Assembly (NCBI GenBank): GCA_051313645.2
Contig: JBNRSN020000024.1
Location: 64,108,001-64,172,000, forward strand
Source of the DNA: Centroscyllium fabricii
Lineage: Eukaryota
DNA: 64,000 nt
Direction: 5' to 3'
The translations under genes and the position numbers were made by a program. This document shows, piece after piece, positions 6,781-40,727 of this stretch. The notes under the pieces are model-generated. The model made no database searches. It had not been told where the DNA came from and saw only the letters and a program-made list of their open reading frames with translations. Within the stretch, counting starts at the first letter, position 1, and every line of letters begins with the position of its first letter.

Positions 6781-7283
6781 TAATAAGAAGCCTGTTTGGG
6801 CACTGTTTTTGCCAATAATCTTGAGCATGCAAGAGTTTCAAGCCTATATTGAACACATTAGTCCCAAACAGGCCAGATGGTTCCACTTCAAATATCAGAA
6901 AATAGAAATGTACAGATTAAATGCAATTAGGCATTAAATTAGTTATAGTTAATACACACTGATGGTTGGAGGACAAGGATAAAACTGGTTGTCCTTCCAA
7001 GTCGCTACTACAGGATATCTAGTCCCTTTTCTTTAAATCTATTCTAGGCCTACCTATTTTAGCAACTTAAAAAAAAAATTACCTCATTTTTAATGCTGTT
7101 TAAAATTTGACTTTCATGAGCGTCACTGCTCTATGTATTTAATTCACATGCACTGAGGTATATGAAAGCTTGCCATTTGCCAGTCTGTTGCAATTTATTT
7201 CAGAGAACACAAATTTCTTTTGAAAGGATATATTTATAAGAATTCTGTCAGTTTGCAGAATTGTAAAGAAGTGAAACCTGGTG

Positions 7284-7352
7284 TGACGTCAAAGCTTACA
7301 ACTGTGGTTTGTGGTCAGAGTTGCATTTCATAGTAGTTTTGTATTTAAAAAG
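7284..7352 (+). promoter_or_regulatory. candidate internal promoter: perfect CRE, Runx-like sites, TATA-like box
   Basis: TGACGTCA at 7284-7291, TGTGGTT/TGTGGTC at ~7303-7317, TATTTAAAAAG at 7342-7352, just upstream of the candidate exon at 7403. Confidence 0.35.
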
Positions 7353-7402
7353 ATGGCACAACATTGTGGAATTTGCCCCAGAGATCCGAAACTTTCCATG
7401 TA

Positions 7403-7458
7403 ATGTTATACGTTGAAGTTCAGTCTTTAATGAAACAGCTTCAAAAATGCGGGAGCTG
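7403..7458 (+). CDS. candidate alternative first coding exon of SSH2 (MLYVEVQSLMKQLQKCGSC-ISESFL...)
   Basis: ATG 7403 after in-frame TAA 7346; donor TG|GTACGT in phase 2, matching the phase-2 acceptor at 10420; no transcript evidence. Confidence 0.4.
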
Positions 7459-8367
7459 GTACGTCTCTGTGCTGTTGGCTGGAAAATGGCATATATAACT
7501 CATTTATCTTGAAATTTTGTAAGATAAATGCTGTCAGAATAGCTTCATCACACAGCAAGAGAATCAGTCTGGTCTGTTGTTACTGTAGCTGGGAGTTTCG
7601 GGAGGGGCTTTCATTTCTGGAGCAGTCTGAAACTGTTATCTCTGGAATTCTTTCCTAATCTTGCCAGGAGATGCTTGTGTTCCAAGAGCCACTCTGCTTC
7701 TCCAGTGCGAAGATTTAGAGTATTGTTTGGGGGTTTCAATTAACTTTTTTTCTCAAACTTTAATTTAAAAAAACAAAGTTGCAATAGATGCAGTTCAAAC
7801 ATTTAACATCATTTCATCATTCATGTCATTGTTGTGCTGATTTCTTGTATACAAATGCCTTACAGGACACTTGCTATGACAAAAGTGTTTTCTTCTGACC
7901 TCTTCTATAACAACCTGTGTGAATTTGAATATAGCCGAGTTTCTTTCTCGCTGTGATGTTCCAGCCTACACTAGTCCAGTTTTTGGAAGATGCAATATCT
8001 TCCGTGAAAGCTTGAAAAGTCTGCCTGAACACCGGCGAGAGCCAGTCCTTCTGTATTTAAAAGAACAATACCTCAAAGAATTGCTCTGGTTTATATAACA
8101 ACACGTAGAGTTACTGCACACCTCAGTCTGAGTAGGAGAGTCTGGAGCTGTATTTCAAATGGAGCAGGAGACACTTATTTCCACAGATTGTTATTTTCCT
8201 ACTTTGAGTATGAATGGAAAAAGTTGTGACTTTCAGACTGCAGCCAAAACAGATTAAGAAGATCTGCAGTATCTTTCAGAAGGTTGCACCATTGAGCGGG
8301 TTTATACCATCAGAGTTAAACCAAACATCTTTTATCTCCTGTCCACTTTTGTTGGGTTAAATACTAT

Positions 8368-10419: not shown

Positions 10420-10523
10420 CATAAGTGAGAGCTTCCTGACTGTAAAGGGCGCTGCCCTATTCCTGCCTCGAGGGAATGGCTCAACTGCACCCCGACTCCA
10501 TCACCGGCGCAATAAACATGCAG
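10420..10523 (+). CDS. SSH2: Slingshot-2 exon (ISESFLTVKGAALFLPRGNGSTAPRLHHRRNKHAG)
   Basis: Polypyrimidine tract + CAG acceptor, GTAAGT donor; peptide matches the SSH2 rather than the SSH1 N-terminal domain; phase 2 to 1. Confidence 0.95.
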
Positions 10524-11880: not shown

Positions 11881-12855
11881 TCCACACTCCCCACCTGCTA
11901 CCCCTCCCCGTCCTCTCCACATTCCATACAGGCCAGTATGAGCAAAAGGATGCTGGCCTGTATATGGTGGGCCTGAGCATGAGTGCTGTAATCACTCAAT
12001 CCACCGGGAGACCAAAAAATATCCATCTACATTAAACCACTGTCAATTTACGTTGTCTTTGGTGCGGGACAAACCACCTCTCTGATGCACCCCAAGTTCT
12101 AGTGGCGCAATGTTTACTTTGGTTTTCTGACCATTTCAGGGCTTCAGATGACGAAACAAAATGTGCCATTAATGACTAACTATTTTTACTAGTTTAACAG
12201 CTATTTGTTTCGAAGTAAAGTCATAATATATTGCACTGTTGTGTATAGAATGGGTGCAGAGGATTATTTCCATTCACTTGAATGCTTTAATGAAGCAACT
12301 TCAAAAATGCGGGAGCAAAGATTGTGATAAATTTAGGTTTCTTTTAGCACAAATGTAAGTGCTAATTCACCTGCAACAAATGAAACATTTACATATTAAA
12401 TCACACCTTTAGTTTCATTAGTACTGATGTGAAATGACAACATTGTGTAATGCATAGCCGATTACACAAATGAATGGCTAACTGAATAAATCACATGACT
12501 CAGACTTACCAGCTAACATCACTTTTTGTGGTAATTTGCAGTTCATCCATTGAATAGTTGATGTAGGACTTCCTTCTCTTGTTTACTTTTGACCCATTGT
12601 TAAATGAATTACCATTTTAATAACCACTGATTTTACAAAAATCTCTCAACCACAAACTCCTGAAGTGGTAAATTAATTTACATGCTTGACAGAAAAGATG
12701 GTAGAGGAAATTGCATATAACATCATGTATCCTGCTTGCACATATGATTTTAAATCAAAATTGTTTTAAGGATTTGTTTCTGCAATTTCCTTCCTTCCCA
12801 CCCACTCCAAAGTAAAATCTAGCCCAGTGTTATCATGAATAATTCCTCCTCAATA

Positions 12856-14541: not shown

Positions 14542-15398
14542 ATTGTAATCTGACAAACACTTACACAAAAGTGTTGAGGAATAAATTGTTCTATGTGAGG
14601 GAGATGTGGTATTAGAATACTGTATAGCCATCAACACCCTAGTTTTCCATTTTGTAATTACCTGCTTCTGGTTTAATTCAACATTTCTTCTCATTTCTGC
14701 ACAGTCAATGGCATATGAGGACAATTTCTGCATTTGCAACCCGCCAATCCATCTTAATTATTATTGGCTTCTTCATTATTCAATGTGTAAAAGTGAAATT
14801 TTATAAATTTGTGTTGCCTGACCCTTGAAAACAGAAGTACAGTATCCATCTTTCTGCTTTCTTCTGAGTGAGCATTGCAGCCAGAAATATAAGACAACTA
14901 ATTGTCAAACGATCATTGCAACACTTACAATAGCCTTGCGTTACATAATATAACTCAATAAACATCTTGTTCTAAAAGCCCCTTGCTGGATTTTCTTCAA
15001 AAATTCATCACTGTTTAGATTCAGGTCTCCGATAGACAGCCTGTGGCATCTCTTGCAGCTGTGGGGAACAAATTCTGACTGTATCAAATGACCTCTCAAT
15101 GGCTGTGCATGAGAGGTCGAATTATCCCCTCACTTCATCTAAAAACTACACTTCGTTTTGGCTCCATGAGTACAGCGCCATGGGAGATCTGTGTGTGCAC
15201 ATGTCACGTTTTAGGATTGAAGTGTTCTCCATCTCCAAATGGGAAAATTTGCACAGCTATGCACATGTAGAAGAGTCCCATGCGGCCATGTATATACCAG
15301 CGATGACGATAACTGAAATTCAGTGAGCTATCACAAATACTTGGCACTAATTTCTTTCACTTTTCTAAATCCAGCTCCTTACTGTTTTTTTTGTTTAG

Positions 15399-15463
15399 GT
15401 GACCTTCAACAGCACCTACAAGCAATGTTCACTCTTCTTAGACCTGAAGACAACATCCGATTG
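15399..15463 (+). CDS. SSH2: Slingshot-2 exon (GDLQQHLQAMFTLLRPEDNIRL)
   Basis: TAG acceptor, GTGAGT donor; phase 1 to 0. Confidence 0.96.
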
Positions 15464-17419
15464 GTGAGTTATCCATGTATATGCAAATTCCTCTGCCTTT
15501 TTTCCTTTCAGTTGATTGATGCAGATTTTATGCTCAAAACGGTGCCTTTGGCAAAAGCAATGGAAATTGTCCCACAGAAATGTATTTGTTTCATATTCTC
15601 ATGTACATTCAACCAACTCGGGGTGAGAAGCTGACTTGTACAGCTGACTTGTTTGCAGGCCGTTAACCAATTCTGACCTTGAATCGAGCGCTATGCAAGA
15701 ACACTGGATTGATTCACTCACTCAACCCTACCCATTGCCCTTACCCCTTACTAAAATTGGGGATTCATTGAATGGCGAGTTGTGAAGCAGGGGCTTGGCG
15801 CACGCTACATTGGGAGTTGGAAAGGTACCATATCTGAAATCTTTTGTGTACTGCTGACCCAGAGTGGCATTGACAATGGTCAATGATGAGCTTGCCTGAT
15901 AATGCTCAGTTGAGGAGTGGCACATAGTTTGCAAAGTGGAACCCAGAAAGGGAAGGATAAATTAAAAAAAATTTAAATGAGAAAAATACCTCCCATAGTC
16001 CTGCCATTTGCACACTAAAACATAAAAGCTGACAAATTGCAGTAGTCAAGTGCATGGTAGTCACAATGCAGGGTATTATCATCCACCCAAAAACTGCTAC
16101 TTTCAGTTGCCAGATTCATACTGATATTTGGAATAATCTGTTAAAGTTTCTGACCTAATATATAGCAGAAATTGGACATTATAAGTGAAAATCATCCTCC
16201 ATTTTATTCACAATAGTTTTATACTGTTATATTTTTACTATAATTTTCTGAAATGATTCTGGTGCAAATTCAATTCTGAAGAGAAACATGAAGCACTTTT
16301 ATAAGATAATGTATGATCGTTGGCAGAAGCTTGGTACTCCTGCCATTGGCACACTAAAACATAAAAGCTGACAAATTGCATGGCTCCAGCACTCGGACCC
16401 CCAGCTTCTCATGGTTCCCAAGGGTAGAGGTCAAAAGACATGGAAAAACTAGAATCTCGTGACATTCGCTGTTCATTGGGGAACCAGAGGTTCACTGGCC
16501 AAGTGTACAGATTGGCACTTGTCGATCACAGGTCTCTACATGAATGGCACTCTCCCAGAGCCCTAACAGAAAAATAAAGGTTCTTGTGTAAATCTTCGTG
16601 CCAGAGTCCTGCAGTACCAACGCTCACTCCTCTAGATATAGACATTGTACCATGTTGCTGGTCAGCATCAGAGCGGAGGCCACATTTAAACTCTGCCACT
16701 TGATTTATCAAACAGGACATTATAGTGGTGGCATGAAATGTTGTGTTGCCATATCCTGTGCACCAACACGGTAGATTTTTGGTCTCGATTTTGTATTTAT
16801 GTTGACACAACCTCTAATTTGAGCCATCTTAATTTTCAAAAATGGTATTCATGAAAGTTAATGAAATTAGAGTTATAGGATCATCAACTTTATACATATT
16901 ATTTCGCTGTAACAAAATTTTTTGGAGCCTGTTCTTAAAACCTCCAAGTCTTATTTGGAAAAGGTACTGCAGTGCCTGATGCTATTGCATCAGATTTTTA
17001 AAAAAATACTGAGGTTTAGAGGTTCAATAAGTTGCAGTAGTTTCTCAAATTTTCTAAAACCTTGAAGTTTACTTGATTGCAATTTTTACTTTTCTGTTTT
17101 AATGAATTTACATGCAGAATTATAGTGGACCTTGGGTATATCATCAAATCAAATCAATGACTTCTGTATTTAAAAAATCTGTTGTGTGCAGTTATATATT
17201 CACTACAGTGTTAACTTTACTGTTGAGATGGACCAGACACTAATGTGTAGTGCTTAAAATACAGTTACTGTAAAAGAAATGAGACATTATTTAAATCCAG
17301 TTTGGTCTTTTATTCCTGTTTACAGATGACATTAAATATTTGAATGAATTTGTTTAAACGCTGAAATTCAAAGTCATTCCACTAGATGGGATTTGCTTTG
17401 TGTTGAGTTCCTACTCATT

Positions 17420-18136
17420 GGCCCCTATTTTCCGATCGGAGGCTTCCTGCGTGCGGAGGCCTCCGATCTGGAAAAAAGCTACATCCTTGAGTGTTCCAGA
17501 GGTCCGGCCATTTCCGCTCCTGGGCCTGTCCACGACGAAATGCGCAGGGCCCAGGTGGCGCAGGCGGTTCGCAAGCCTCCCTGGGATCACGTGGGCCATG
17601 GGAGCCAATGGGAGAAGGAAATCTCCCTTCATACTTTTGACAGCTTAGACATGTCAAGAAAGTATGAATGGAGATCATCCCAAAAAGACATCAAAACATC
17701 GAATACATTTTTAAAATCACGTTTTTAAAATGACATTAAATATTTTAAACAAATTTAATTTTTGAAATAAATTAGTTTTTTTACGGGGCTAAAAATAAAC
17801 TTACCTTCTTTAAAGTATTTTGAAATTATAAATGAGTGAAAAAATTATTTTACTTTTTTAAACTCTTATACTGATAAAAGCAGGCTTTACGCTTGCTTTT
17901 ACCAGGCGTAAGATTTCTAAGGGTTTTCAGCGGGCGGAGGTTCTGCAGAAAGCGGATCTCATTCCCCCCCCCCCCCCCCCCCCCGCAGAGGCCCTTCTCC
18001 AGGGCAGGCGTCCAATCTGTCAAGAGCATTCTTGACGGATCGGAAATGCCGATTTTCAGCGTATGCGCTTTGCATACCTGGAACCAGCATTTGCGAAGTC
18101 TACGGGTGTGCCCGTAGGGATCGGAAAATACGGGCC
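17420..18136 (+). mobile_element. PIF/Harbinger-like non-autonomous TIR element (same family as 8368-9042)
   Basis: GGCCCCTATTTTCCGATC ... GATCGGAAAATACGGGCC TIRs; collinear with the 8368 copy; TSD not intact (ATT/AAA). Confidence 0.82.
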
Positions 18137-18237
18137 AAAGTCTGAGTGCAGGTTTTAACACTGTACTTGGTAGCAGCTCCATGCTGGATGACCGAAAACG
18201 CAGCAGTCCAGAATCAGAGAGCCTAAATTGCATGGTA

Positions 18238-18872
18238 CAGGTTGAGCACCGTTAATTCGGCACGGGCGGGAGAATGAAGCTGGCCAGTGCGCGCACCATT
18301 CAAAATGGCTGCGCGCATGTGCATAGCACTGCTATTGGCTGCCCCAAAGCTTTGAATGATTTGCGCATGCGCTGACAAACGGCGAGCACATGCGCAGATC
18401 ATGCGAAATGGCCGCCCCGAAGTTGTACCCTCGATGTCGGGCATCTGCTCCTCATCCGACAGGTCGGAGAAGGCCTCCTCCTTCTCCTCCTCGTCTCCCA
18501 GTGACTCCGAGTCGCTGTTGAAGCCGCTGTTGCTTTCCATGGGGTCGGCGTCTCCTGAAGCCATCGGGACGGTGAGTGTGAATGTGCCGGGATCAAAGGC
18601 TGGAGTGGGCTCTGCTGCTCTCTCTCACCTGTCCTCTCCTGTCTATCTGCTCGCCCCGACTGCCCTGCGCATGTGCAAAATGGCCGCCGCGATCGAGGCT
18701 TCGGCGAATGATCTGCGCATGCGCTCGCCGTTCGGTGGCGCATGCGCAGATCATTCGCTGAAGCCTCGGTCGCGGCGGCCATTTTGCGCATGCGCAGGGC
18801 AGTCGGGGCGATTTGTGCCGGACGACTGAAGTTGTCGGCTTTTCGGTTGCCCGATTAACGGTGCTCAACCTG
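18238..18872 (+). mobile_element. pogo/Tigger-like MITE, family 1B, with 226-bp cargo and internal hairpin
   Basis: TA|CAGGTTGAGCACCGTTAAT ... ATTAACGGTGCTCAACCTG|TA, perfect 19-bp TIR. Confidence 0.92.
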
Positions 18873-19190
18873 TACTAGTGCTCACTTAAAGTAAATCCGA
18901 AATCCATTCATTTTATTTGAGTGGCATGACATTTGAATCTGTACACCTATAGGTGAGAACTTGTTACCAACTGTACTTAGTACCAGTTAGCTATTTGGGC
19001 ACAGCAGCCTGTGGACCTGGTCATGTCTACATGATAGACCGTGCAAATGCAAACACAAATAAAGAGCGCAAAGAATACTTAACTCTTTCATTGTATACTG
19101 CCTCTCACCCCAAAAGCATAAAGTGTCGTCATGAAAGCTGATCATGGTATGTACGTGTTTGATATATATATTTCTTTTTAATATTTAGTA

Positions 19191-19447
19191 CAGGTTGAAC
19201 ACCATTAATCCGGCAGGGTTGGGACCAGCACCCTACCGAATTGTTGAAAACGCCGACTGATTGAAGCCACGGCGGCACATGCACACAGCATTCAAAATGG
19301 CTGCCGCGAAGTTTTGAATGATCTGCGCATGCGCTCGCCGTTCGGCGGCGCATGCGCGGCCATTTTGCGCAGGGCAGTCGGCGCAATTTATGCCGGACGA
19401 CTGAAGCTGTCGGGTTAACGGTTAACGGATTAACGGTGTTCAACCTG
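19191..19447 (+). mobile_element. pogo/Tigger-like MITE, family 1B (short, no cargo)
   Basis: TA|CAGGTTGAACACC ... GGTGTTCAACCTG|TA; near-identical start to the 12856 copy. Confidence 0.9.
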
Positions 19448-19885
19448 TATCTGCCTTTCCTGGGCATTTACCCCATTGTGAAGTTATTAATAAATTTTGG
19501 GTCTCCATAAATAAGAAAAAGTTAACGTAGCAAAAATATATTTAATACTTTAGACTTAAAAAAAATTGTGATCAGTGCAGATTTTTGTTTAACCCTGTTT
19601 CTGTTGTGTTTTTCTCATGTACGGTGATTTGGAGCTGCAAACCTTCCTTCACAGTTAAAGCTACACTTCCACATAAGTTAGGTGCATAACAAAACTAAAT
19701 TGTGTTACTAAAAAATCCCATTCAGAAGACAAATCATCATCTGGCATTTAGTTTTCCTGCACAAAATTTTGGCGTATTTACAGATTGTGTTGACATCCGT
19801 TCTGTAGCACTAATTGTTAGCTGTGCAACTGATGTGGTCAACTAAAATGAAACCCTCTCAAAAAGCTGATCGCACATTCCAATAT

Positions 19886-20070
19886 AAAACCGGGAAATGT
19901 TGGAAATGTGCAGGTGGTCAGACAGAATCTATAAAGAGGGAAGGCAAGTTATGACATTTTGATGAAAGGTACATACCCAAATTGTCATGACCTGCATTTA
20001 CTCTTTACAGATGTGGACTGATCTGTTGTTTATTTCTAACATCTTTTTGTTATTTCAGATTTCCAGCAAT
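19886..20070. repeat. degenerate palindromic copy of the Penelope-type shark repeat
   Basis: Reverse-oriented GAAATGTTGGAAAT..GGTCAGACAG arm, decayed TTGATGAAAGG core, forward ACAGATGTGGACTGATCTG..TTTCAGATTTCCAGC arm. Confidence 0.5.
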
Positions 20071-20092
20071 TGTGGTTTTTCTTTTGATTGAT

Positions 20093-20158
20093 TGTACAAA
20101 TTTGTATATTATCTGTACAAATTTGTATATTATCTGTACAAATTTGTATATTATCTGT
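20093..20158. repeat. 21-bp tandem repeat x3
   Basis: (TGTACAAATTTGTATATTATC)3. Confidence 0.95.
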
Positions 20159-20358
20159 GCTTCTATCATTAAAACCAATATCGCCTCAAAAAATGTTTTG
20201 CTGCATGATATCTCTCTTCCAGCGGCAGGAGCTTGTGAACGGCCTGCACAGGACCTCACAATTTGTGCATGGCCGCACACCTTAAGGGGAACATTGATTA
20301 TAATAATTTTTATAGGGAATCTGCAATATATTGTGGAAAATTGTATGTTAATGGTAAT

Positions 20359-20587
20359 TGTAATGATATTGAGACTTCCGGCAGGAAGTCGGATGAACTC
20401 TGCTTATGAACTTCCAGTGACATTACTTCCTGTACATGTCACTTCCTGTGTAGTAGTATAAATTCTGCTACTATTCAGTCTGAGATAATGCTTCTCTATG
20501 TAAACATGTTAAAACTCTCAACTCTGTAAATAGCTGATTAAAGCTTTGCTTAAAGTATTTGATGTGTAAGTCGCTTTTGTCACATCA
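20359..20587 (+). mobile_element. possible solo LTR
   Basis: TG...CA ends, flanks GTAAT/ATAAT, several ACTTCC motifs, TATAAA at ~20457, ATTAAA at ~20538. Confidence 0.45.
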
Positions 20588-20738
20588 ATAATCGTGCTAC
20601 GATTGGTTGTTTGCTTCTTTATTTTAATCCCTGTCCTTTCATATAGTCTCCTTATGTTCATATAGTCTCCTTATGTACAGAACAATCACTAAGTAGCTCC
20701 CCTATTATCCATTTGCCATAAATACAGTTATACTACCT

Positions 20739-21125
20739 TAAGCATCCACTCCCTCCACCACCGGCACAACATGACTGCAGTGTGTACCATTAACAAGATG
20801 CACTGCAGCAACTCGCCAAGGCTTCTTCAACAGCACCTTCCAAACCCGCGACCTCTCCCACCTAGAAGGGCAAGGGCAGCCGGCACATGGGAACACCACC
20901 ACCTCCAAGTCACACGCCATTCTGACTTGGAAAAATATCGCCGTTCCTTCATCGTTGCTGGGTCAAATCCTGGAACTCCCTACCTAACAGCACTGTGGGA
21001 GTACCTTCACCATGTGGACTGCAACGGTTCTAGAAGGCAGCTCACCACCAGCTTCTCAAGGGCACTTGGGGATGGGCAATAAACGCTGGCCTTGCCAATG
21101 ATGCTCAGCACCAATGAATGAATAA
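20739..21125 (+). mobile_element. L2/CR1-group LINE 3' fragment
   Basis: HSLHHRHNMTAVCTINKMHCSNSPRLLQQHLPNPRPLP, (GAAT)n tail; same family as 49445-51025. Confidence 0.8.
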
Positions 21126-22547
21126 ATTAAAAACATACTGATGCTCAGTAATTGCTGTTCCTGACATTTTGAACTGGAATGCACTGTGCCTTGAAAGTCA
21201 GTACCTGTACATGAAAAAGATTTCATACAGGGGATCCTTGATTTCAAAGAAATGCCACAAACAATGTTCCAGCTGTTTCACTGAAGTTCCTTGTTGTGCT
21301 TTCCAGATGTGGAGGCTGCATTGACCGTTCTTGCAACAGGAGCAGCTTCCCTACTCCAAGCTACAGACTCTGCTCCCAGCTAACCATAGATTGGTCTGAC
21401 CTCATTTAAAAAACAAAACAATACTAATCGAAGTGTCAGAACACAAGAGTTTGTGCTGCATTCAGTCTGCTCTTATTAAATATGGAAAATGTGGCATACA
21501 CACTTTAAATACTGAAATCACCCAGCGCCACTCTGCACATTCACAACAGTGCGCAATATGCTTATGGGGACTGTGGCACTAGACAGATGGGGGAAAACAT
21601 TGCATAACGTACAATATATTTGGAACTGCTTCAAAAATGTCTGCCAATCAGACTGATAGAGGACCAAGTAACACATTTAAGATTTGAAATGATGAGAACA
21701 GGAATGTGACATGTAGAACTTTGTTTATGATTATCAGTTGTATTGACGCACTGTCCAATATAGCTAGCTTTGAATGATATCTATTTGGAATGTCAAACAT
21801 TCACCGGGCATTAACGCATGACTAGCTACCCTGGCTTATGCCATTTTATAAGGGAATACTGTTGTTTAACACAGTATAGATTGTAAGTGCAGAGTTCTAC
21901 TTTTCATAGAATATATATTTATAAATGGAGCCTAGTTGATGTTTGGCCCCTCAAGTTTAGCCAAGCTAAGAAAAATAAATGCACTGGTTTGTTGCTAGAA
22001 TTTAATAAAGAAATTATGTAAGCCTAAACTAAAATTTGAAGTCCATTTCCCAAAACTTGCACCCAAATTAAACAATTTCTGTTTCCTAAAAATGTGTCCT
22101 CCTTTTCAGGTGCACTACAGCAGTGAGGTGTGAGTCACTTATGTGCTACTGTAATCATATTGCTCACTGTTTGCGAATGTTTTTTAAAAACTTCCCCTTC
22201 CCAGGATTAGGGATTACAAGTATTTGTGTGGTTGCAATAGGGAAGGTCCTGGAAACTCATGACATGTCATGAAATATTGACTGCCCAGCCACCAAGAGCT
22301 TTGTTAGGTGTTGACTTGGGTCTATAATACGTTCACCCATTTCACTTGAGATTGAATCAACTGTTCTCGTATGTTTGTGCTGCCTATAATTTAGTTCTAA
22401 TGATATCATAGCCTACATTTCATGTCACAACTGTCAATTTATTTCATTTTCTACCATCATGCACCATTTTCTAGGCATTTAGGGCCCCTCGGTGTTGAGC
22501 AGGGGTTAAGTCCACCCCCATCTTGTGGGGAGGAGGAAAACTTTAGG

Positions 22548-22992
22548 TGTCAGCCTTGGCTCAGTGCTAGTACTCTTGCCTCGGAATCAGAAGGTTATGG
22601 GTCCAAGCCCCACTTCAGAATTTGAGCACATCATTTCAGCTGACGCTCCGCTGCAGCACTGAGTGAGCACTGCACTGTTGGAGGTGCTTTCTTTTCGAAT
22701 GAAATGTTAAACCAAAGGTCCCTTTTTGGGTGGACGTAAAGCACCCATGGCAGAATTTGAAGAAGAGCATGGGAGTTCTCCCCGTGTCCCGCCAATACTT
22801 ATTCCTCAAACAATACCACTAAAATAGTTTAATTGGTCACTTTTCTCACTGCTGTTTGTGGGGCCTTGCTGTACGCAAAATCCATACATTATAACAGTGA
22901 CTACACTTCAAAAGTACTTAATTGGCTGTGAAGCACGTTGGGACATCCTGAGGTTGTGAAAGGCGCTATATCAATGTGACTTCTTTCTTTCT
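22548..22992 (+). mobile_element. tRNA-derived DeuSINE-type SINE (SacSINE1-like) with L2-type tail
   Basis: TGGCTCAGTG A-box, GGGTCCAAGCC B-box-like, Deu-like core, GAAAGGCGCTATAT...TTCTTTCTTTC tail. Confidence 0.7.
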
Positions 22993-23276
22993 AACTCAGC
23001 GGGAAATTTAAAAGTCTGAGGGAGAATCAAAAACAGGGCTGTCTTCTATCTCCTAGCAACCAGCTCAAGATCAGCATTGTCATAAGTCAGAGTAAACAAC
23101 TGTCTGATTTCCTCAGCCGAGGGATGGCTTATGACAAAACCAAAAGAGAGGGCGAAGAGTCGAAAATACATTCAAAATAAGAAGGCTGCACTGTGCAACT
23201 TAACCACAATGCTGCACTTGTGCTCCACAAAGCATTCATCCTTTTAAATGTGAATTCTACTAGTTCGCTTCACTTA

Positions 23277-25110
23277 GGGGCCCTTCACAATTGTCAACAT
23301 TTTCACGAGCGTACAAACCGTACGCTGGGGGGGAGGGGGTCCGACTTGTCCGTACGCTTTTTTTTTTCGTTTAAATGTCTTTTTTTTTTTTTTTTTTGTT
23401 CCGGTTCCGGTTCTGGCAGGACGGCCGCCATCGGGCGGCTGTACCTCGACTCCTCTTCGTGGAGTCAATCCGTTCTGGTCGACCGCCATTTGACGTCGGC
23501 AGCGCCGGGTGAGAGCCGGTGAGATGCGGGGCACAGTTCAGCCCCAGGACGCCGCATCAGTTCGGCCTCGGTCCAGAGTTCGGACCTCCGGGGTGTCGGG
23601 ACGGCCTTGTCTTGGCGTTCCGGGGAGCCTGCGTCGAGCGCTGGAGCTCCGGGGAGCCTGCGTTGAGCGCTGGAGTTCGGAGCTCAGGGGAGCTGGGATG
23701 GGGCACTCGGAGAGGGCTAGGCTTCAGGCCTCAGGACGCTGTGCCCGGAGTTCGGAGCTCCGTGGATTCGGGGAGTCGGGCTGAGAGTGGCCACGGAAGG
23801 AACAGTGGCAGAGCGAATTGACTGGGCGAGAGAGGACAATTTTACCAACGGTTGAGTGGCCAGAGCAGGAACGGGATCCACGATGATGGCGCCGAAGGAT
23901 GGCTGACGTCTTGCGGGCTCGTTCGCACCGGGCAGCTTAATTGTTGCGCGGTTGTTGTTGTTGCACGGTGTGTCGGGTAGCAGTAAGCATTTCGTTGTAT
24001 GGTGTTTGTTCGCTGTACAATGACAAATAAAATTGAACTTGATTGAAATTCCGCCGGTTTGAGAAGTGAAAAAAACAGGTTTAAAGGTAATTTAAAAAAA
24101 ATTCCTTTGGAGATATTTGTTTGTGGTCTTACAGGTTGTAAATGTGAAGGTTTTTATATATTTTGGTGAAAAAAATCGGCAATTTGAACGCGATGCCGAG
24201 AACTGCGAGAGCTCTGAGAGCTGGAGAGATCGCGTTCAAATCCCCGATTTTTTTCACTATCACCAAAATATATAGGGAGGAAAAAGGAGGAAGACATAAA
24301 GCAGGAATTTAAGGAACTAGGAAGGAAACTGAGAGACAAAACGAATAATGCCACGATTTCTGGGATCCTACCAGTGCCACGGGATAGGGAGTGGAAAAAC
24401 AAAAAAAGAATGAGAATAAACACGTGGCTACAGGATTGGTGCAGAAGGGAGGGCATGAGTTTCGTGGACAATTGGGGATCGTTCTGGGGAAGGTGGGATC
24501 TGTATGACCGGGACGGCTTGCACCTGAACCGAAGGGGCATCAACATTCTGGGTGGGAAACTCGCCCATAGAGCTTTACAGCACAGAAAGAGACCCTTCGG
24601 CCCATCATGTCCACGCCGGCCATCAAGCCCTTTCTATTCTAATCCCATTTTCCAGCACTTGGTCCGTAGCCTTGTATGCTATGACATCTCAAGTGCTCAT
24701 CCAAATGCGGTCGGGCTGCGCCTTGGGCCTTGCTGCCGCGGTTGAGGTTTGTCCTCCCGGAGGAGCCGGGGCCGGGGATGGGGATTGCTGTGCGGCTGGT
24801 CCGTCAGTGTGTTTACTGTCATCTTGTGCTGATTTTTACAGATCTGAAGTTCCATCAACACACAAGGCCGCCGGCCCCCCGGCCCATGACCGCAGACAGT
24901 GACTCTGAGTAACGAGGATCTCCCTGATGAGTCTGCAGTCACTCTGGTTCCTTTCTAAACCTCCCTGTGCTAATTAAATTCAATGGATGATGTTGGAAAA
25001 AATCAACATTTTTGGTGTACACTTCCAGGGGGAGGGGGGTGGGGGAGGGGGTAGCAAAAAAGAGTACTCTTTGTACACTTGTGAAAATGTTGACAATTGT
25101 GAAGGGCCCC
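23277..25110. mobile_element. TTA-flanked TIR DNA element (PIF/Harbinger- or Zator-like) with mosaic internal sequence
   Basis: TTA|GGGGCCCTTCACAATTGTCAACATTTTCAC ... GTGAAAATGTTGACAATTGTGAAGGGCCCC|TTA; TIR ~41 bp; no transposase visible. Confidence 0.9.
24272..24562 (+). pseudogene. isolated CR1 ORF1 SGNH-esterase fragment inside the TIR element
   Basis: Uninterrupted frame IGRKKEEDIKQEFKELGRKL...ISGILPVPR...INTWLQDWCRREGMSFVDNWGSFWGRWDLYDRDGLHLNRRG, homologous to 6583-6780. Confidence 0.85.
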
Positions 25111-25328
25111 TTAAGCATAATAAAGCATAAAAATTGCTATTGCTTAGGTAGCTAAAAATAATACTTGTTGCTGTACGGATGTTTAGGAAGTTTACTTTGC
25201 AACTGCTCCTGGGAGAACGAAGTGCACTTTACAATAAATCTTGTGATGTGGCAGGTGTTCATAAAGGGCTTTAGTTGCCAAGTCTCTCTCTGCTTCCACT
25301 ATATACAGCAATGTCTGTCACAATGGCT

Positions 25329-25986
25329 GGGTGGGATTTTAATGGGGATGGGTTTCAGATAGATGAGGTGGCAAGTGTCCCAGATTCTCTATACCCCCTC
25401 TCTTTCCCCCCCACCCCCTTCCAGAATATGTTAATTTGAGTCCCAGACTATCTTCACTCCCAGACCTCATTTACATTCCACTGGCTGCCTGAAATGGGCA
25501 GAAGAGGCAGCTGGCCAGCTGCTGATAGGCAAAGATCAGGCCGTCTGCTGGTGAGCAGGTACATTGCAGGGAATGGTTTTGGCAGGATCTCACTGGTGGG
25601 AAGCAGGGAGGAGCCGGGACTGCTGAGGCCCAGACCTTTGTGGGAGCCAGAGGAGTAAGAGTGCTCCTCCTCGCCCCGCAAAGGTAAGTTTAAAACTTAT
25701 TTTTGGGGCCCTCACTTTTTTGCTGACTAATTGTACTGAAAATGGCAGGCACCCTGCGCAACCAGCAGTTAAAATGCAATTGGGGTCCTAACGACCTCAT
25801 CGAACCCTGATTTGCATGTGGCTTCCACGTGCAGGAAGGGGGGGGGCCTAGCCCGGCTAAAAATGGGGCCTAGTTAGGGTGGAAACGGACAGATATGGCG
25901 AGGGAATGGGGCGCTAAGTGTTTGGAGACGATTTACGGGCACGGCTGCTCCGTTTCGCGGAGCAGGGTGGGTTAAAAATCACCCCC
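25329..25986. mobile_element. degenerate Harbinger-like TIR element
   Basis: GGGTGGGATTTTAA ... TTAAAAATCACCCCC imperfect termini, GC-rich interior; similar debris at ~61130-61400. Confidence 0.45.
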
Positions 25987-26213
25987 ATGTTTCTGGCTAT
26001 TTTCTAGATCAATTCCAGGGTTGTATTTATATCTGTAAATATTTATTCTTGCAGTTCTCGTGCCAAAATTGAAATCAAAATTGGCCTGTAACAGGACAGT
26101 CTTGCAAAAGCTTCATCGAATCATACCTGCTATGTTTAGTATTTGCAGATGTGCTTAAAGCTTTAACTGTACACAATGCCGTGTGGACATCAGTGTAATG
26201 CCTCTGTTTCTAT

Positions 26214-26448
26214 AAACATAGAAGATAGGAGCAGGAGTAGGCCATTCGGCCCCTCGAGCCTGCTCCGCCATTCAATGAGATCATGGCTGATCATCCAAAC
26301 CCAGTACCCCGCCCCATATCCCTCGATCCCTATCGAGCCTGCACCGACACATATCCCACCCTATCCCCGTAACCCCACATATTCAATCCCCCTAACACTA
26401 AGGGTCAATTTATCCTGGCCAATCAACCTAACCCGCACATCTTTGGAC
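26214..26448 (-). mobile_element. HE1-like SINE, 3' half
   Basis: Near-identical to the 3' part of 38508-38892 in reverse. Confidence 0.85.
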
Positions 26449-26821
26449 ACGTCATAGTGAACAAAAACTGTTTAGATTCAATCTTAACAGAAAACTGTGG
26501 ATCTTTAATGCGTTACAATAATTAAGCCAGTTAATAGATTGCATAAGTGGCAACAGCTGTAAACTTGTTTGGCCATATGATCCGGTGACCATAGACCGTC
26601 CCAGGTCAGTTGACTCGCATTCAGAGATTGGTTTGAAAATATTGTTATGTTGTTTTGATGCAGACTGGCTCTGTGAAATAAATACTGATAATCCAGCATA
26701 CACAAGTTATCCCCAGGTTGGGAGAGGATGTATAAATTGATTTAAAATGTAAAGATTTCTTTAATCAAGGCTTAACATAACAAAACTCTTTTAGAGCTTA
26801 TTTTCTTTTAAATAATTTCAG

Positions 26822-26940
26822 GCTGTACGGTTGGAAAGTGCTTATCTAGAACTGACTAGGTACATGGTGGTAGTTTCCACCAATGGCAGACAAGACACGG
26901 AAGAAAGTATTGTTTTAGGAATGGATTTCTTCAAAGATAG
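26822..26940 (+). CDS. SSH2: Slingshot-2 exon (AVRLESAYLELTRYMVVVSTNGRQDTEESIVLGMDFFKDS)
   Basis: CAG acceptor, GTAAGA donor; phase 0 to 2. Confidence 0.96.
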
Positions 26941-27764
26941 GTAAGAAAATCTCAAACTTTGACTGTTACCATTTTATAAGCTTACTTAGTTAACTGATGG
27001 TGAAACTTTCATTGCCATTTAATATAGTGAGGACCTAAGGCTGAAATAAATTGTGAAATATATAATGCAGAATAATTACTTTGAGGGATTCAGAGAACAT
27101 GATTAACCATAAGAGTTTTGCTGTCACAATTTATATCATCTGAACTCTTTGCTGGAACTGCTGCCTTGTAACTGATTCCTTGTTGTTTTACATATAGCTT
27201 GTTTTTGTATTAATTGAATTAGTTTATTCATGCAGGAAATGCTTTTGTTGTTGAGAGTTTTGTCAGTAAAAGGATTTGTTTTGTGATTTAAATACTTTTT
27301 TGCCAACAATATTGGGAAGTAATGAATATGGTTTAGCCATTATTTGATCATTTGGATATCCCACTTCCTCATTTTTTTAAACTGATGCCCATGATTAATG
27401 GGTTGTAACGTATCCTGTCCAAACTCTCTGTCCCTCTCGCATGGTGGTTTGGTTTGGTTCTGTGTGTGTGTGTCTCTCTCTCTCCTGAGCTTATTTAGGC
27501 TTATGCACCTGTTGAGCATGTTGCATTTTTTAGCCAGCAATTATTTAACTTTTTTTTTGTGTTGTCATATCTATTTTCAAATTGCAGCATCTCTTAATTA
27601 ATAAATTTGCCCCAAAATAATTTTCAATGTTATTTGTGATGGTTGCAATCCCATCTGTGATGAGATTACTGTAACCAGTTTAAAATAACCTTCAGATATA
27701 CTGTGCAAGAAACCAATCTGGAGCAGCACTTTTTTTAATAATGTAGTTTGGGTATGAACCTTAA

Positions 27765-28479
27765 GGGGGAAAAATTGGCTAGCGCATGTTTTGTGGCGCT
27801 AACCTCGGCGCAGCGCTATTTTTAGCGCCAGCTGATTGCTGGCGCCGTTAGCGCTGAAATTCGGCTGTAGCGCCCACAGTAGGAGGGCGGGCGCTAAAAC
27901 AGGTGGCCGCCCGCGTTCCTCAGGTGCTACGGCCGAAGATCCGGGCACTGGGGGTCGCGGCGACATGCAGCGCAGAGTGGTGCGCCGCGGACTGCAGGCC
28001 TTCCTCCCCGATTAAAGGGGAGGGGCCGAGCGCGGCTGCGGCCGCAGTCCCCGCGGGGCCGCCGTGGGACGCCATGCAGCAGAAGGAGCCCGGCACTGGA
28101 GGGAAGTGCCGGGCCCACTGGTCGGAGGCCTCACACCGCGGGGGGGGGGGGAGGCGGCGGCAACGGGGGAGGCAGAGGGGAAGGTGCTGGCAGTCGGCCA
28201 GCAATAAAATTGGCCGACTGGCACCCTTCCCTTTAAGCAGCGCTCCCCCGCTGCTCTTATGGCTGGAAAAAGCTGTCGCGGACAGCGCCCGCCGAAAACC
28301 CAGTGGGTGCTGCCCAGTTTCAGTCGCGGGCGCCACACAGGCGCTGCGTGCACTGATGACGTCATCCCCGTCGGTCAGCTGGGCGAAATATTCAGTGTGA
28401 CGCTACCGCTTACTGTCAGCCTTAGCGCCCCCCTTTTGGGGCGCTAACGAGCAGGCGCAAGACCGTGAATTTCTAGCCC
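27765..28479. mobile_element. GC/CpG-rich PIF/Harbinger-like non-autonomous element
   Basis: TAA|GGGGGAAAAATT ... AATTTCTAGCCC|TAA; subterminal TAGCGCC/GGCGCTA repeats. Confidence 0.75.
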
Positions 28480-29712
28480 TAAGATTTTAACTGACTTATT
28501 GTCAATGAATCTCTGCACTGGAACATTAAACTTTTATTCATAAAATGCTAAATATTGCTTCAAAAAGCCAGGTTAAAATATCACCAACAAAGGATATCTA
28601 AAGAAGAACTCTTACTAATGTGTTAAGATACAAGGGAAAAAAATATTGCACTTGACATAAGTAATTAATCTTGTTTAAATAATATGCTTTGCATTGTTAT
28701 ATCAGCTCATGTCCCCCGTACACATGTATAGGTTTTCACAGTGAATGGGCAGATAGAGGCTCTTATCAATGGTGTCCTGTTGTAAGGCTGGAAATACTGT
28801 TTTAAAGACCTTCCTCCTGTAGCTGTTTGCCAATGTGACAGTATGCAACACTTCTAATAAACCTCCGATCTTATGAGCAAGCAAATAACTAGCATTCTAT
28901 CTGTCAGGTTCATGCTGATGAATGCCTGCTTGTTGCTATGTAAACAAGACAACACACACTCTTTTTCGTTTGATGTTTGAAGATGGTGGTTCTTGTGTGC
29001 CATTCTGTTACAGGGTGCATTTAGAAATGGCTTGAGCATGTGGCTGGGGGAGGACCTAAGAATATCCTCTGATCATGGGGAGCTTTTTATAAAACTTTCC
29101 ATGAGGTCATCTTGTGCAGTCAACACAAGTTATTTCTGTTAACTGTCTCCCTGAGCACCACACACTCACTCTCTCTCTCTCTCTGGCAAGGCTATATAGT
29201 GATCACAATAAGCACAGTTTCCAAAATCTGGACTGCACAAGTGGTGGTTATATGTTAAATTACACATAATTTGACATAATATAAATGCAATCTACACTTT
29301 CCGTATACTGGTGTAAATTTTTTCCGCATACTGCAGATATCTATATTCAAATATATTGTGTCTACACCGCTCTTGTTTCTGTGCTGTCTGGCCAGTGCAG
29401 AAGAAAAATAAAACTACAGATTCAGTCGGAGCAGTAATGCACTGAGAAAATCGTCTGGAGTTTGCTCAGACCAAGTTCATTCATTTTTTTTTTCTTTGGC
29501 ACATTGCAGCTCCAGCTGAATGGCTGACTTAAATTATGTTTTGATATGCTTAAGCTCACCAAAACTGTGCTCACCCTACAATACAAATATTTAGCCTTGC
29601 ATACAATTGATCTCAACTTGAAGATTTAAAAAATGTATTACAGGATTGAAACCATTCCACTGTGACAATCAGAACACTGTATAGAGACAAATGGAAATCC
29701 TGTCCGTTCTCT

Positions 29713-29817
29713 TGAAATCTTAACTCTTTCTCCACAGATGCTGTCTGACCTGTTGGGTATTTCCGGCATTTTCTGTTTTTATTTCAGATTTCAAGCATCT
29801 GCAGTATTTTGCTTTTG
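29713..29817 (+). repeat. Penelope-type shark repeat, partial (hammerhead core lost)
   Basis: TGAAATCTTAACTC..CCACAGATGCTGTCTGACCTG..TTTCAGATTTCAAGCATCTGCAG, homologous to 63845-63955. Confidence 0.7.
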
Positions 29818-30095
29818 TAAGAGAAAAATGTGCTGTGGAAGTTGCTTCAGCCCATTGTTAAACCCATTGCTTTTTATCCACGAGCACTTGATATCAGTAG
29901 TTTAATTCTTGTTGGGTTTAAATGCTCTTTTCACTTTTTCCAAATGTACTTGAGCTGAGTACAGACTGTAGTTCGATGGACTTGTATTGATTTATGCCTT
30001 CTCTGTAATCCTTTCTGCTGAAGATATCGGCATAAAACAATGTGCAACATAGTATACAGAAACTATGCTAATTTTAGATTACATTATCTTTGCAG

Positions 30096-30164
30096 CAGTA
30101 CTTGCACAATGGGCCTGGTTCTTCCACTATGGAGTGACACGCTGATCCATTTGGATGGTGATGG
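30096..30164 (+). CDS. SSH2: Slingshot-2 exon (STCTMGLVLPLWSDTLIHLDGDG)
   Basis: CAGCAG acceptor, GTAAGT donor; phase 2 to 2. Confidence 0.96.
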
Positions 30165-30526
30165 GTAAGTACACTCGGTACCTAACATCTAATCTCAAAT
30201 AGTAAAACCTTGGGAACCCAGCACTAAATGTCTAGTAGTAAAATTCTTCTTGTTCCAAGATATTACTTTAAAGACAACACAAAGGAGAGGCATTTGTTAC
30301 TGCTAGTATAAAAGGAGCCTATCTGAGACAAAGTGACAAGAAAAATCAGTCTGGATTCCTATCCTATTCAACCATGCCTGATGGAAGTGTGCCTGCGTGG
30401 ATGTCTGATGAGGGCAGAATTGGTTCTGGTTTTGCCACCCGGCTTGTCACAGCCTGCTTGTGTCACTGTCCAGGCGCTCTTGGAAGAACAGAAGAATTCT
30501 TGGGAATAAAACCACTAGGCCTAAAA

Positions 30527-30820
30527 TCTGTCTCTATATCTGTCTCTATATCTATCTCTATATCTATATCTATATCTCTCACTATATCGCTCTCTATATC
30601 GCTCTCTATATCGCTCTCTATATCGCGCTCTCTATATCGCGCTCTCTATATCGCGCTCTCTATATCGCGCTCTCTATATCGCGCTCTCTATATCGCGCTC
30701 TCTATATCGCGCTCTCTATATCGCGCTCTCTATATCGCGCTCTCTATATCGCTCTCTATATCGCTCTCTATATCGCTCTCTATATCTCTCTCTATATCGC
30801 TCTCTATATCGCTCTCTATC
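30527..30820. repeat. compound micro/minisatellite (TATATCGCTCTC / TATATCGCGCTCTC)n
   Basis: 12- and 14-bp units seen directly. Confidence 0.95.
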
Positions 30821-31755
30821 AATTTCAATTCAATTCAATTCAAATAGCTTTATTGGCATGAATGGTATCAACCGTTGTTGCCAAAGCATTGCAGTATACA
30901 TAAAATAATACATTGGTAGACGTAATATCAACAGTACATTGGTAGATGTAATAATAACAGTACTAACAATATATATACAACCGCATCTGTAGTAACATCA
31001 ATAGATGTAGTTTAAATGCAGTTTCAAACAGTATCACAGTCAATGTTGGTCTCTGCCTGTGTGTGTGTGCATGTTGGTCATTCACTGTCCCTCAGGTTGT
31101 GGCATGATGTTACGTATTGTGCACCAAGCTGTGCCCTATCTCCTTCGCCAAGGATTATTTTTAGTTTTGAGGTATCATCTAATTCTTTGAAATCTGGGAT
31201 TTCTAGGCCTAGTTTGTCAAAGTATGTTTTCCTTGTTTTGTCGAATTTTTTGCATTTTAGGAGGAAGTGCATCTCTGTTTCAACCTCATCTGTCAAGCAG
31301 TGACCGCATATTCTATTTTCTCTTGGCTGCCAGGATTTCTTCTGTCTTCCTTTTTCGACTGCCAACTGGTGGTCACTTAGTCTGTACCTGGTGAGGGTCT
31401 GTCTCTGCTTTATATTTCTGACAGTTGAAAGATAGTCTGCCACTTTATAGTCTCTTTCTAAGGCACGGTAGCATTCTAGTCTGCTTTGGTTTTTAGTTGC
31501 TTTTTCCCAATGTTCCAAATATGTTTCTTTGCATTTTTTGATAATTTGGTTCACTCTAATTGATGTTTGGAAGGCAGTGTTGATCTGAGACTGGTCAAGG
31601 TTTGACTGAGATGGGGTAGTTAGTCTCAGCACCAACTGACAACAGGGGACTCTTTTGGGTTTGGAGGGCTTTAAACTGGAGGGAGTCTGGGTGACTAGAT
31701 TTAAGGTGATTCCAAAAATTTAATATTCTTTTTTGGATATTTATGATTAGTGGGT
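30821..31755 (-). mobile_element. RTE-X-like LINE 3' fragment with CCHC-like C-terminal motif
   Basis: ORF 31078-31635: LTRYRLSDHQLAVEKGR...RICGHC...VETEMHFLLKC; (TTGAA)n tail at 30821-30845. Confidence 0.75.
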
Positions 31756-31932
31756 ATCTCTCTCTCTATCTCTCTCTATATCTCTCTCTCTATATCGCTC
31801 TCTATATCGCTCTCTATATCGCTCTCTATATCGCTCTCTATATCTCCCTCTATATCTCTCTATGTCTATCTATCTGTCTATCTCCATCTCTATATCGCTC
31901 TCTATATCTCTCTATGTCTATCTATCTATCTC
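31755..31932. repeat. continuation of the (TATATCGCTCTC)n satellite
   Basis: Same unit as 30527-30820 on the far side of the LINE. Confidence 0.9.
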
Positions 31933-32981
31933 CAGCTATGGTGTCTCAAATCCATTTATATTTTCTGCTTTTAATTTGCATGAAAAATAGGCAGTTGGGC
32001 AAGGTACTGGAAGCCACTGGGAAACTTTAACCCAGCCTGAGTCCCTGTCTTTAAGCAAGAAGGTCAAAGAAAAACAAATGTTGGTAAGAGAGGAATTTAT
32101 TTTTACCACAGCTGAAATAAGGGACTTGATGGTCATTACTAGCTGTATACTCAAGTTCCAATTATTTACAGAATTAACTTGCTGAAGCCTGTTACATTTG
32201 GTGTATTTTTCTACCAAAGATGTTGGTTTACTAAACGCTTCACTGGCCAGTAGTTGGTGAGGAACTGAATCATTTGACCAGCATTCACTGTGTAATGAAC
32301 CAGCAATGGAAGCCCATCACAATACAAGAACTGTCATATTACCACATGGCATTTATGACATCATTACCACCAACAGAATTTGGATTTTTCAGCAATAAAC
32401 AACTCTGCTACTTTGTTTAAACATTTTGTTCTGCTACCATGGCACTTAATCAGCTATTTTGTCACTTTGTGTACTCAAAGATGGAAGTTATCCCCTAAAA
32501 GCCATGGTAAATATGAATTGTCATTTTATAATTTTTTTTTTTTTAAATTAACTAACTGGTTACTGTGTGTGGCTTTCAAAGGTATTTTATTACTTCCTTC
32601 TCTTTCTCTTTTCTCTCTTCGTGCACTCACATGCTCTCTCTCCTCTCTATTTCTTTTTCGCTCACTCGTGCTCTCCTCGCGCACGCGCGTACTCTTTATT
32701 TCACTTTCCTTTCTCTCTCTCTTTATTTCTCTTTCGCTCACTCTCCTCTCTGGCGTGCTCTCGCTCTCTCTTATATTTATTTACTTTCTTGATTGTCCCC
32801 ACTGTCGAAGTGTTCAGCCCTCTTGACTTCTCATGTTGACAGATCGGAGCCCTTCCTGTACTGAGATTGTGGGTGCACCGTGTCACCATACCATTTTGAG
32901 TTGCACCTGTTTATTTTTCTAAGTTTTGCTGATAACTTGAATCATTTCAAATGTTTTTTCTGCTTTTCTTTCCCTCCCAAG

Positions 32982-33047
32982 AGGATTCAGTGTGTCGACG
33001 GTGAACAGAATTCACATCTTCAAGCCTGTGTCTGTACAGGCAATGTG
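32982..33047 (+). CDS. SSH2: Slingshot-2 exon (GFSVSTVNRIHIFKPVSVQAMW)
   Basis: Pyrimidine tract + AAG acceptor, GTAAGA donor; phase 2 to 2. Confidence 0.95.
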
Positions 33048-33230
33048 GTAAGAACTTTTGGAACATTTTTGCTATTTTTTCTGCAGGTTTTCTCCAGCAC
33101 CAGTTTGTTAATGATGAAGTTTACAGTTCTATTGCTGTGCTGTTTCAGCTAAAAGCTGACCATGTATTCTCAAGTAACATGCAAATGACAAATGGTCGCA
33201 TAATTTTGTGTGGCTACAGAAACATAGAAA

Positions 33231-33549
33231 TGTAGCATAACTACTCCGGGAGGCACGCCTGTCTCCCTTTAAGGCAGTGGCCTGGATCAGTCAGTCTTGC
33301 TTTATGACCGAATCCTCTTTGGTAGATTGGTCCCGCCCCCATTACCACATTGGTCAATAGATTCAACGGGCACAGAACCTGATAGGCCCTTAGCACTGTC
33401 ACTCACGGGTCACGTGGTTTCCTGCCGTTTCGCGCCAGAAAGAATCAGTTCGTGTAGTTTGTTGGTTTAATAAAGACGTGTTTTAATTCACTCTGCTGTT
33501 TACCTTTGATTCTTCGATATTTAAAGTGGGAAACCTTCAGTTCCCCACA
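33231..33549 (+). mobile_element. solo LTR inserted in a SINE tail
   Basis: GAAA|TGTAG ... CCACA|GAAA 4-bp TSD; removing it restores AACATAGAAACATAGAAG; AATAAA at 33469. Confidence 0.8.
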
Positions 33550-33942
33550 GAAACATAGAAGATAGGAGCAGGAGTAGGCCATTCGGCCCTTCGAGCCTGC
33601 TCCGCCATTCAATGAGATCATGGCTGATCATCCAAACCCAGTACCCTGTCCCTGCCCTCTCCCCATATCCCTCGATCCCTACCGAGCCTGCACCAACACA
33701 TATCCCACCCTATCCCCGTAACCCCACATATTCAATCCCCCTTACACTAAGGGTCAATTTATCATGGCCAATCAACCTAACCCGCACATCTTTGGACTGG
33801 GAGGAAACCGGAGCACCCGGAGGAAACCCACGCAGACACTGGGAGAATGTGCAAACTCCACACAGATAGTACCCGAGGCTGGATTTGAACCCGGGTCTCT
33901 AGTGCTGTAAGGCAACAGTGCTAACCAGTATGTCACCGTGCC
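33550..33942 (-). mobile_element. HE1-like tRNA-derived V-SINE with CR1 tail
   Basis: Reverse complement of 38508-38892. Confidence 0.9.
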
Positions 33943-34355
33943 GAAAGAGATATGGTGCAGAAGATAAGCACGGCAAAAGCCAGCAAGCTCTGTTAGTTTG
34001 GTTGTGAGGAAATTTGTACATGTGAAGACCAGAAGTTCATGTTGTTTGTGAATTTTAGCTATGTTCTGACTGAAACAATTATAGCTCATTGTGCATTATT
34101 TAAATGTTGCAGCCAAAAGCTTTATGTTTACTAGCTATTTTTCTCTTTTGGCATCATAATCAAATGTAAAAATGCAGTAGTCATTCTAACATCAAAAATG
34201 CACTTGCTTTGGTAGGTATTGGTAAATGTGTACAGCTAAATTAATCCTTTGTTATCCCTGCTGTCAAAATGGCCTCATTTATTAAGCACAGAATAGTCTT
34301 TGGAAAATATTTTTTAATGTGTGACACCAACTGTGTGAATTATTTTTATTTTCAG

Positions 34356-40670: not shown

Positions 40671-40727
40671 TTGCCTCCTCTTGGCACCTTTTCCCGGAGG
40701 AGCCGAATCTATCGGGAATGTCTGGTG

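Follow-up and report, generated by a model that had tools for sequence, protein, structure and literature searches.

The window examined here is a stretch of 64,000 nucleotides (C756:64108001-64172000) from the 7.2-billion-base genome of Centroscyllium fabricii. It carries SSH2 (Slingshot homolog 2), a gene for a cofilin phosphatase. Exons 3-14 follow one another in order on the plus strand (tblastn, 71-100% identity per exon), and the exon series is closest to SSH2. Among the best 120 of 670 matches, those ranking highest for the late long exon are cartilaginous-fish SSH2 proteins (83% to Pristiophorus), and SSH1- and SSH3-like paralogues lie on contigs other than that of SSH2. SSH2 homologues carry the Pfam families PF23040, PF08766 and PF00782.

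10420..10523, plus strand: SSH2 exon 3, with the acceptor common to all alternative N-termini; contig matches start exactly at 10420
15398..63541, plus strand: SSH2 exons 4-14, with the Slingshot N-terminal, DEK-C and phosphatase domains and the beginning of the long tail (tblastn)

The acceptor AG of exon 3 occupies positions 10418-10419, and the exon begins in phase 2. Two conserved SSH2 starts already join this acceptor, namely exons 1a plus 2 and exon 1b, all of them located 5' of the window (exon 1a at C756:63936844, exon 2 at about C756:64018235 and exon 1b at C756:64087749-64087880, the latter separated from exon 3 by 30.5 kb). Isoform divergence at this point is seen in the SSH2 proteins of mammals, sharks, teleosts and hagfish, which bears out the statement, made in an earlier sequence-only reading of this DNA, that mammalian SSH2 isoforms split at the 10420 acceptor. 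That reading also identified the gene and its reading frame correctly, and alternative first exons do use this acceptor, as it held. Its central proposal was an additional first coding exon at 7403, which, since both conserved starts at exon 3 are already known, would be the third. The proposed exon follows exon 1b and precedes the exon 3 acceptor by 2,962 bases; it lies in repeat-free DNA, and its surroundings contain the following elements.

7284..7291, plus strand: full palindromic CRE (TGACGTCA) in AT-rich, CpG-poor DNA (local GC 0.35, 3 CpG in 300 bases)
7303..7316, plus strand: two neighbouring TGTGGTY matches (at 7303 and 7310; motif search), which we take to be Runx-like
7342..7349, plus strand: TATA-like TATTTAAA, 58 bases past the CRE
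7353..7403, plus strand: upstream out-of-frame open reading frame (ATG 7353, 16 codons, strong context) and a start-stop ATG at 7398, as read from the sequence
7403..7458, plus strand: candidate first coding exon, unproven, of 18 codons (MLYVEVQSLMKQLQKCGS) and 2 bases; single copy in the genome
7459..7464, plus strand: candidate phase-2 donor, CTG/GTACGT

All components named in the earlier proposal (the CRE at 7284, the Runx-like sites, TATTTAAA at 7342, the in-frame stop, located at 7346-7348, ATG 7403 and the donor) are indeed present. It had left out the out-of-frame upstream ATGs at 7353 and 7398, whose shared stop overlaps ATG 7403. From this ATG, the frame stays open over 56 coding bases (7403-7458) up to the GTACGT. 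Because the end of the candidate exon and the beginning of exon 3 are both in phase 2, splicing to 10420 would create a Cys at the split codon (TG/C) and keep the frame open into SSH2, as had been claimed.

The individual signals can be compared with their expected frequencies. Full CREs occur twice in the window, compared with 0.51 expected, and 10 of 100 shuffles reach this number; its plus strand contains TGTGGTY 12 times and TATTTAAA 10 times. The candidate donor fits the U1 consensus at 7 of 9 places, true SSH2 donors at 6-9, and it scores 8.4 on a matrix made from the 12 located SSH2 donors, which, as its own training set, score 6.2-11.4. Sites scoring at least 8.4 number five on the sense strand of the 30.5-kb intron versus 16 on the other strand, and the same interval between exon 1b and exon 3 contains seven phase-2 ATG-to-donor units of at least 10 codons. 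In a survey of the SSH1, SSH2 and SSH3 loci (369 kb on both strands, i.e. 738 kb of strand sequence, with 617 ATG-to-donor units), a full CRE is found in the candidate alone, as is the combination of a CRE with a TATA-like box. However, given the six CREs in these 369 kb, about two of the 617 units would be expected to bear one, so that the single case observed represents no enrichment for the CRE alone. The joint fit of CRE, TATA-like box, sense strand, right phase and helix is unusual, for features chosen post hoc, and the candidate unit stands out modestly in its local context. Its observed/expected CpG ratio of 0.34, compared with 0.98-1.13 for SSH2 exons 1a and 1b and SSH1 exon 1a and with 0.5 for the 1b-like exon of SSH1, hints at possible germ-line methylation. 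The second full CRE of the window (28357) is part of an intronic stretch rich in GC and CpG (27800-28450), and the other CREs of the SSH2 locus are also found within GC-/CpG-rich stretches.

Contigs covering 7000-10700 were available from two runs, taken to be RNA by guess, of a relative about 4-5% diverged and from two runs of the shark's own DNA. The joint between 7458 and 10420 is absent from the listed joints (15 of 116), which derive from contigs that lose rare forms and are RNA by guess. In run X2 of the relative, likewise RNA by guess, a contig of depth 2.5 crosses the donor unspliced (7421-7575). It contains six other letters and three gaps, a divergence like that of nearby intron contigs (3.6-4.8%), and may represent DNA or pre-mRNA. 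A second X2 contig, of depth 169, runs through exon 3, and its 527 upstream letters match no part of 7000-10700. Run X1 has a hole at 7284-7495 and thus carries no evidence on this region. As rare forms are lost from contigs and the one crossing the donor is possibly DNA or pre-mRNA, these data argue only weakly against splicing.

Protein-level searches for the peptide in other sharks and vertebrates yielded no relative. The protein samples were drawn from the best 120 of 670 matches, with at most 15 members per cluster. The peptide occurs in none of the 92 cartilaginous-fish SSH2 proteins sampled, which come from 22 named species and six records without a species name. Exon 1b forms the start of 41 of them and exons 1a plus 2 that of 28, while three have another exon spliced via exon 2; seven have other short or predicted N-termini (species-restricted short N-termini at the exon 3 acceptor: 7 of 92), and 13 are without exon 3. 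When 428 SSH proteins of vertebrates were compared, none of the 374 with an N-terminus before exon 3 contained a homologue, the best local score being 26 compared with 90 for the peptide itself. A protein search with the candidate frame gave two candidates, none of them at E<=10, for an 18-residue query close to the detection limit, and a second gave two matches, both of them repeat proteins, and no relative. A 21-base pattern around the CRE had no match in metagenome contigs. In view of the lack of homologues among the sampled proteins, a deeply conserved coding exon appears unlikely; an exon confined to a narrow lineage or a rare tissue would be compatible with it.

Two apparent relationships were discarded. 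Fish Logan peptides starting with MLYCRV (score 22 to the candidate) end in the pyrimidine tract of the acceptor and are therefore read as intron read-through. A decayed copy of exon 1b, considered on account of an 11-mer and the frame in common, reaches its score in 0-6 of 600 local shuffles and in 2-16 of 30 intron-wide ones; in addition, the promoter parts are unlike, and one of 2,456 tiles, from an unrelated antisense stretch of SSH1, has a higher score.

The 3' part of the candidate exon is found a second time in the window.

7425..7456, plus strand: copy 1 of a 32-base direct repeat, forming the 3' part of the candidate exon
12285..12316, plus strand: copy 2, in intron 3, 4,860 bases downstream of copy 1; 30 of 32 bases alike

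A degenerate pattern search located the repeat at only these two places in the genome, on either side of exon 3. The flanks of the copies are unrelated (their score is attained in 168 and in 300 of 300 shuffles), and neither of the two differences between the copies changes an amino acid in the candidate frame (chance 0.11). Three isolated short pairs of this kind were counted over 239 kb, and in two of the three the copies are less than 5 kb apart. The pair looks like a repair-mediated duplication, or doublet, of the kind described in PMC2671141 and by Thomas et al., cited there, with which it shares its short and unique sequence, a spacing of less than 5 kb, unrelated flanks and low divergence. 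In that source, 824 of 1,136 human repair-mediated duplicons lie within 5 kb of each other (PMC2671141); however, the mean length reported is 162 bases, compared with 32 here, and donor and acceptor copy are not distinguishable in the present case. If copy 1 were the insertion, most of the helix encoded by the candidate exon would be accidental, whereas there would be no consequence if it were the donor. Two other interpretations were rejected: the copies do not mark a larger tandem duplication, as their flanks are unlike and there is no decayed exon 3, and copy 2 is hardly a coding exon, as it is present in 0 of 331 proteins and a frame spliced from its GTAAGT donor to exon 4 would run into a stop.

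The surroundings of copy 2 (12149-12360) contain a half-CRE (12149), an AT-rich box (12224), an ATG in good context with a 25-codon open reading frame (12250) and a GTAAGT donor (12355). This stretch could constitute a non-coding first exon for isoforms starting at a Met inside exon 4, which are annotated in several sharks, birds and mammals. Another isolated direct repeat of 46 bases (15996-16041 and 16335-16380) is 96% alike, its copies being 339 bases apart.

In the SSH1 paralogue (on C822), the homologue of exon 1b is situated 13.3 kb before its own exon 3, which was located by protein match, an exon-3 pattern search having given no hit. The only full CRE in 80 kb of this locus lies 2,108 bases before exon 3, between the 1b-like exon and exon 3, and the flanks of the SSH1 CRE bear a weak resemblance to those of the SSH2 CRE at 7284 (25-173 of 2000 shuffles). 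These two are also the only ones of the six CREs in the SSH1, SSH2 and SSH3 loci found outside GC-rich, CpG-rich DNA. An ATG and a donor follow the SSH1 CRE, but in phase 0, out of frame with the phase-2 exon 3 of SSH1. A CRE at the matching place combined with an out-of-frame ATG and donor favours a functional CRE over a coding exon. The SSH1 cluster about 2.1 kb before exon 3 has a promoter-like make-up, with elements that we presume to be ETS-like and CCAAT-like, then the full CRE and a GTAAGT donor.

The candidate N-terminus is predicted to form an amphipathic helix. Its moment of 0.70 over 11 residues is reached by 1.3% of 993 ATG-started peptides and is as high in 6 of the 617 units, and the moment over all 18 residues is reached by 2.8% of shuffles of its own composition. 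Cys16 and the junction Cys19 come after the helix; a Cys within the last six of 18 residues is found in 22% of random ATG peptides. S-acylated amphipathic anchors make their first membrane contact through a basic face or a myristoylation site, and neither is apparent here, with a net charge of +1 and Leu instead of Gly at residue 2. Thus, the amphipathic spacing pointed out in the sequence-only reading stands, whereas the S-acylation, membrane targeting and cAMP response that it deduced are left unsupported by the low charge, the missing Gly2 and the lack of conservation. The N-terminal amphipathic, S-acylated anchors of the RGS4 type have helices that are basic and conserved; the candidate resembles them in its amphipathic spacing and nearby cysteines but differs in its net charge of +1 and its lack of conservation. 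Titles and the opening parts of abstracts, as listed for non-subscription papers, contained no palmitoylated or acylated SSH2 and no CRE-, CREB- or cAMP-driven SSH2 isoform. Exon 1b, conserved from hagfish to mouse, has a CxC/CC cluster in 92 of its 108 long forms and is a better candidate for S-acylation than the 7403 peptide.

Several readings of these observations have to be weighed. The one we prefer, although tentatively and at somewhat less than even odds, is that the region contains a minor, tissue- and lineage-restricted third SSH2 promoter whose short first exon replaces the Ser/Thr-rich N-terminus. It accounts for the motifs, the open frame, a donor matching the true donors, the phase match and the other first exons using the same acceptor. 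The CRE and TATA-like box that no other unit combines, the high helical moment, the single-copy, repeat-free DNA, the position of the SSH1 CRE, the silent differences between the repeat copies and the species-restricted N-termini elsewhere also speak for it, whereas the 0/92 and 0/374 protein counts, the unspliced contig, the deep contig with upstream letters from elsewhere, the lack of CRE enrichment, the low CpG ratio, the mostly unoccupied full CREs of mouse germ cells and the post hoc choice of features speak against it. Chance and a non-coding element are close rivals. The former, somewhat less probable but to be taken seriously, posits an ordinary intron whose CRE, AT-rich box, ATG and decoy donor are aligned by coincidence and in which the helix may stem in part from a neutral 32-base repair-mediated insertion. 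The seven phase-2 units in the intron, the roughly two CRE-bearing units expected among 617 and the two CREs in 10 of 100 shuffles all agree with this notion, as do the missing homologue, the contig that crosses the donor unspliced and the unrelated repeat flanks, spaced by less than 5 kb like 824 of the 1,136 human duplicons (PMC2671141). It is harder to reconcile with the meeting of CRE, TATA-like box, strong donor, right phase and a helical moment in the top 1-3% within one unit, or with the SSH1 CRE at the matching place.

That same SSH1 CRE, alone in 80 kb and 2.1 kb before exon 3, is central to a reading that we consider unlikely on the whole, in which the CRE forms the core of a regulatory element, either an enhancer or the promoter of a non-coding or out-of-frame exon, and gives rise to no new protein N-terminus. 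Its position may have been common to SSH1 and SSH2 since the vertebrate genome duplications, consistent with the weakly alike flanks, the location of both CREs outside GC-/CpG-rich DNA and the out-of-frame ATG and donor in SSH1, but the flanks are alike to a borderline degree and were compared after the CRE had been seen. The full version of the original proposal, a cAMP-induced isoform whose S-acylated amphipathic helix and two cysteines direct the phosphatase to membranes, is very improbable. The moment of 0.70, attained by 2.8% of its own shuffles, and the position of Cys16 and Cys19 after the helix fit this idea; the net charge of +1, the absence of Gly2, the late Cys in 22% of random peptides, the lack of conservation, the conserved CxC/CC cluster of exon 1b and the absence of literature support do not. 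We give equally little credence to an extended scenario in which an old CRE common with SSH1 would drive a cAMP-switchable third isoform of the shark lineage, which, having lost the inhibitory phospho-region and gained an acylated helix, half of it copied into the next intron, would act as a constitutively active, membrane-bound phosphatase. Taking the regulatory and the acylated forms together, a real spliced third first exon comes close to an even proposition. The candidate is likely to be no more than an ordinary alternative start confined to a narrow lineage, and it probably does not serve as a membrane anchor.

If the preferred reading of a third promoter is correct, transcription would begin near 7370, driven by a CREB/CREM-type factor bound to the CRE and by TBP on the TATA-like box, and a start at this point would exclude the strong upstream ATG 7353 from the message. 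Ribosomes would then skip the weak ATG 7398 and initiate at 7403, and splicing of the candidate exon to exon 3 would replace the usual N-terminus with 19 other residues. The consequence would probably be regulatory: SSH2 could be turned on separately, as a protein without the Ser/Thr-rich residues 1-36, rather than receive a new membrane address. These residues, which belong to the exon 1a+2 form, are dropped by any first exon that joins exon 3, and Tang et al. are said to have placed, in 2011, the inhibitory GSK3 sites of SSH2 within them. GSK3 phosphorylates SSH2 and reduces its activity, according to two reports (PMC4641950; PMC4342024). Given that every first exon at exon 3 removes residues 1-36, promoter choice could set the kinase restraint of cofilin dephosphorylation.

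The closest known counterpart is exon 1b itself (N-terminus MTL; mouse NP_001278119, shark isoform X1), which likewise has its own promoter, its own ATG and a phase-2 donor, uses the exon 3 acceptor, drops the residues of exons 1a plus 2 and carries cysteines. However, exon 1b is conserved from hagfish to mouse, has a homologue in SSH1, is CpG-rich and lies 27.6 kb further upstream, whereas the candidate is CpG-poor, unannotated and without a homologue. Similarly, Callorhinchus isoform X3 and Narcine isoforms X4/X5 have a short extra N-terminus at the exon 3 acceptor in a single species, but they show no sequence likeness to the candidate, and some of them look like pyrimidine-tract read-through. 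With the CREB/CREM-bound intragenic CRE/TATA promoters, the candidate shares a full CRE about 85 bases before the predicted start and a TATA-like box. In PMC3091680, intragenic CREM sites are described as potential alternate promoters; most full CREs are unoccupied in mouse germ cells, and neither a CRE nor a TATA box predicts regulation. The RefSeq table in its supplement contains, by a gene-name search that misses unnamed intragenic sites, one Ssh2 row for mouse spermatids, a half-CRE at the canonical start (PMC3091680). SSH2 is required for acrosome biogenesis, as reported in a paper whose covered sections mention neither a promoter nor CREM (PMC10065795), and the covered part of PMC8534876 contains nothing on SSH2.

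Even if real, the candidate is an ordinary feature at an acceptor already known for alternative first exons, adding one more alternative start to a gene that already uses several; it would be relevant to shark genome annotation and to the origin of new first exons. The SSH2 introns in the window also contain broken reverse transcriptase/endonuclease frames (3616-6525, 47206-48904 and 54365-56519), which are presumably of LINE type. Elsewhere in the genome, a stretch with one internal stop (C2:178963511-178963762) matches SSH2 residues 399-481 with 84% identity and is possibly a retrocopy fragment.
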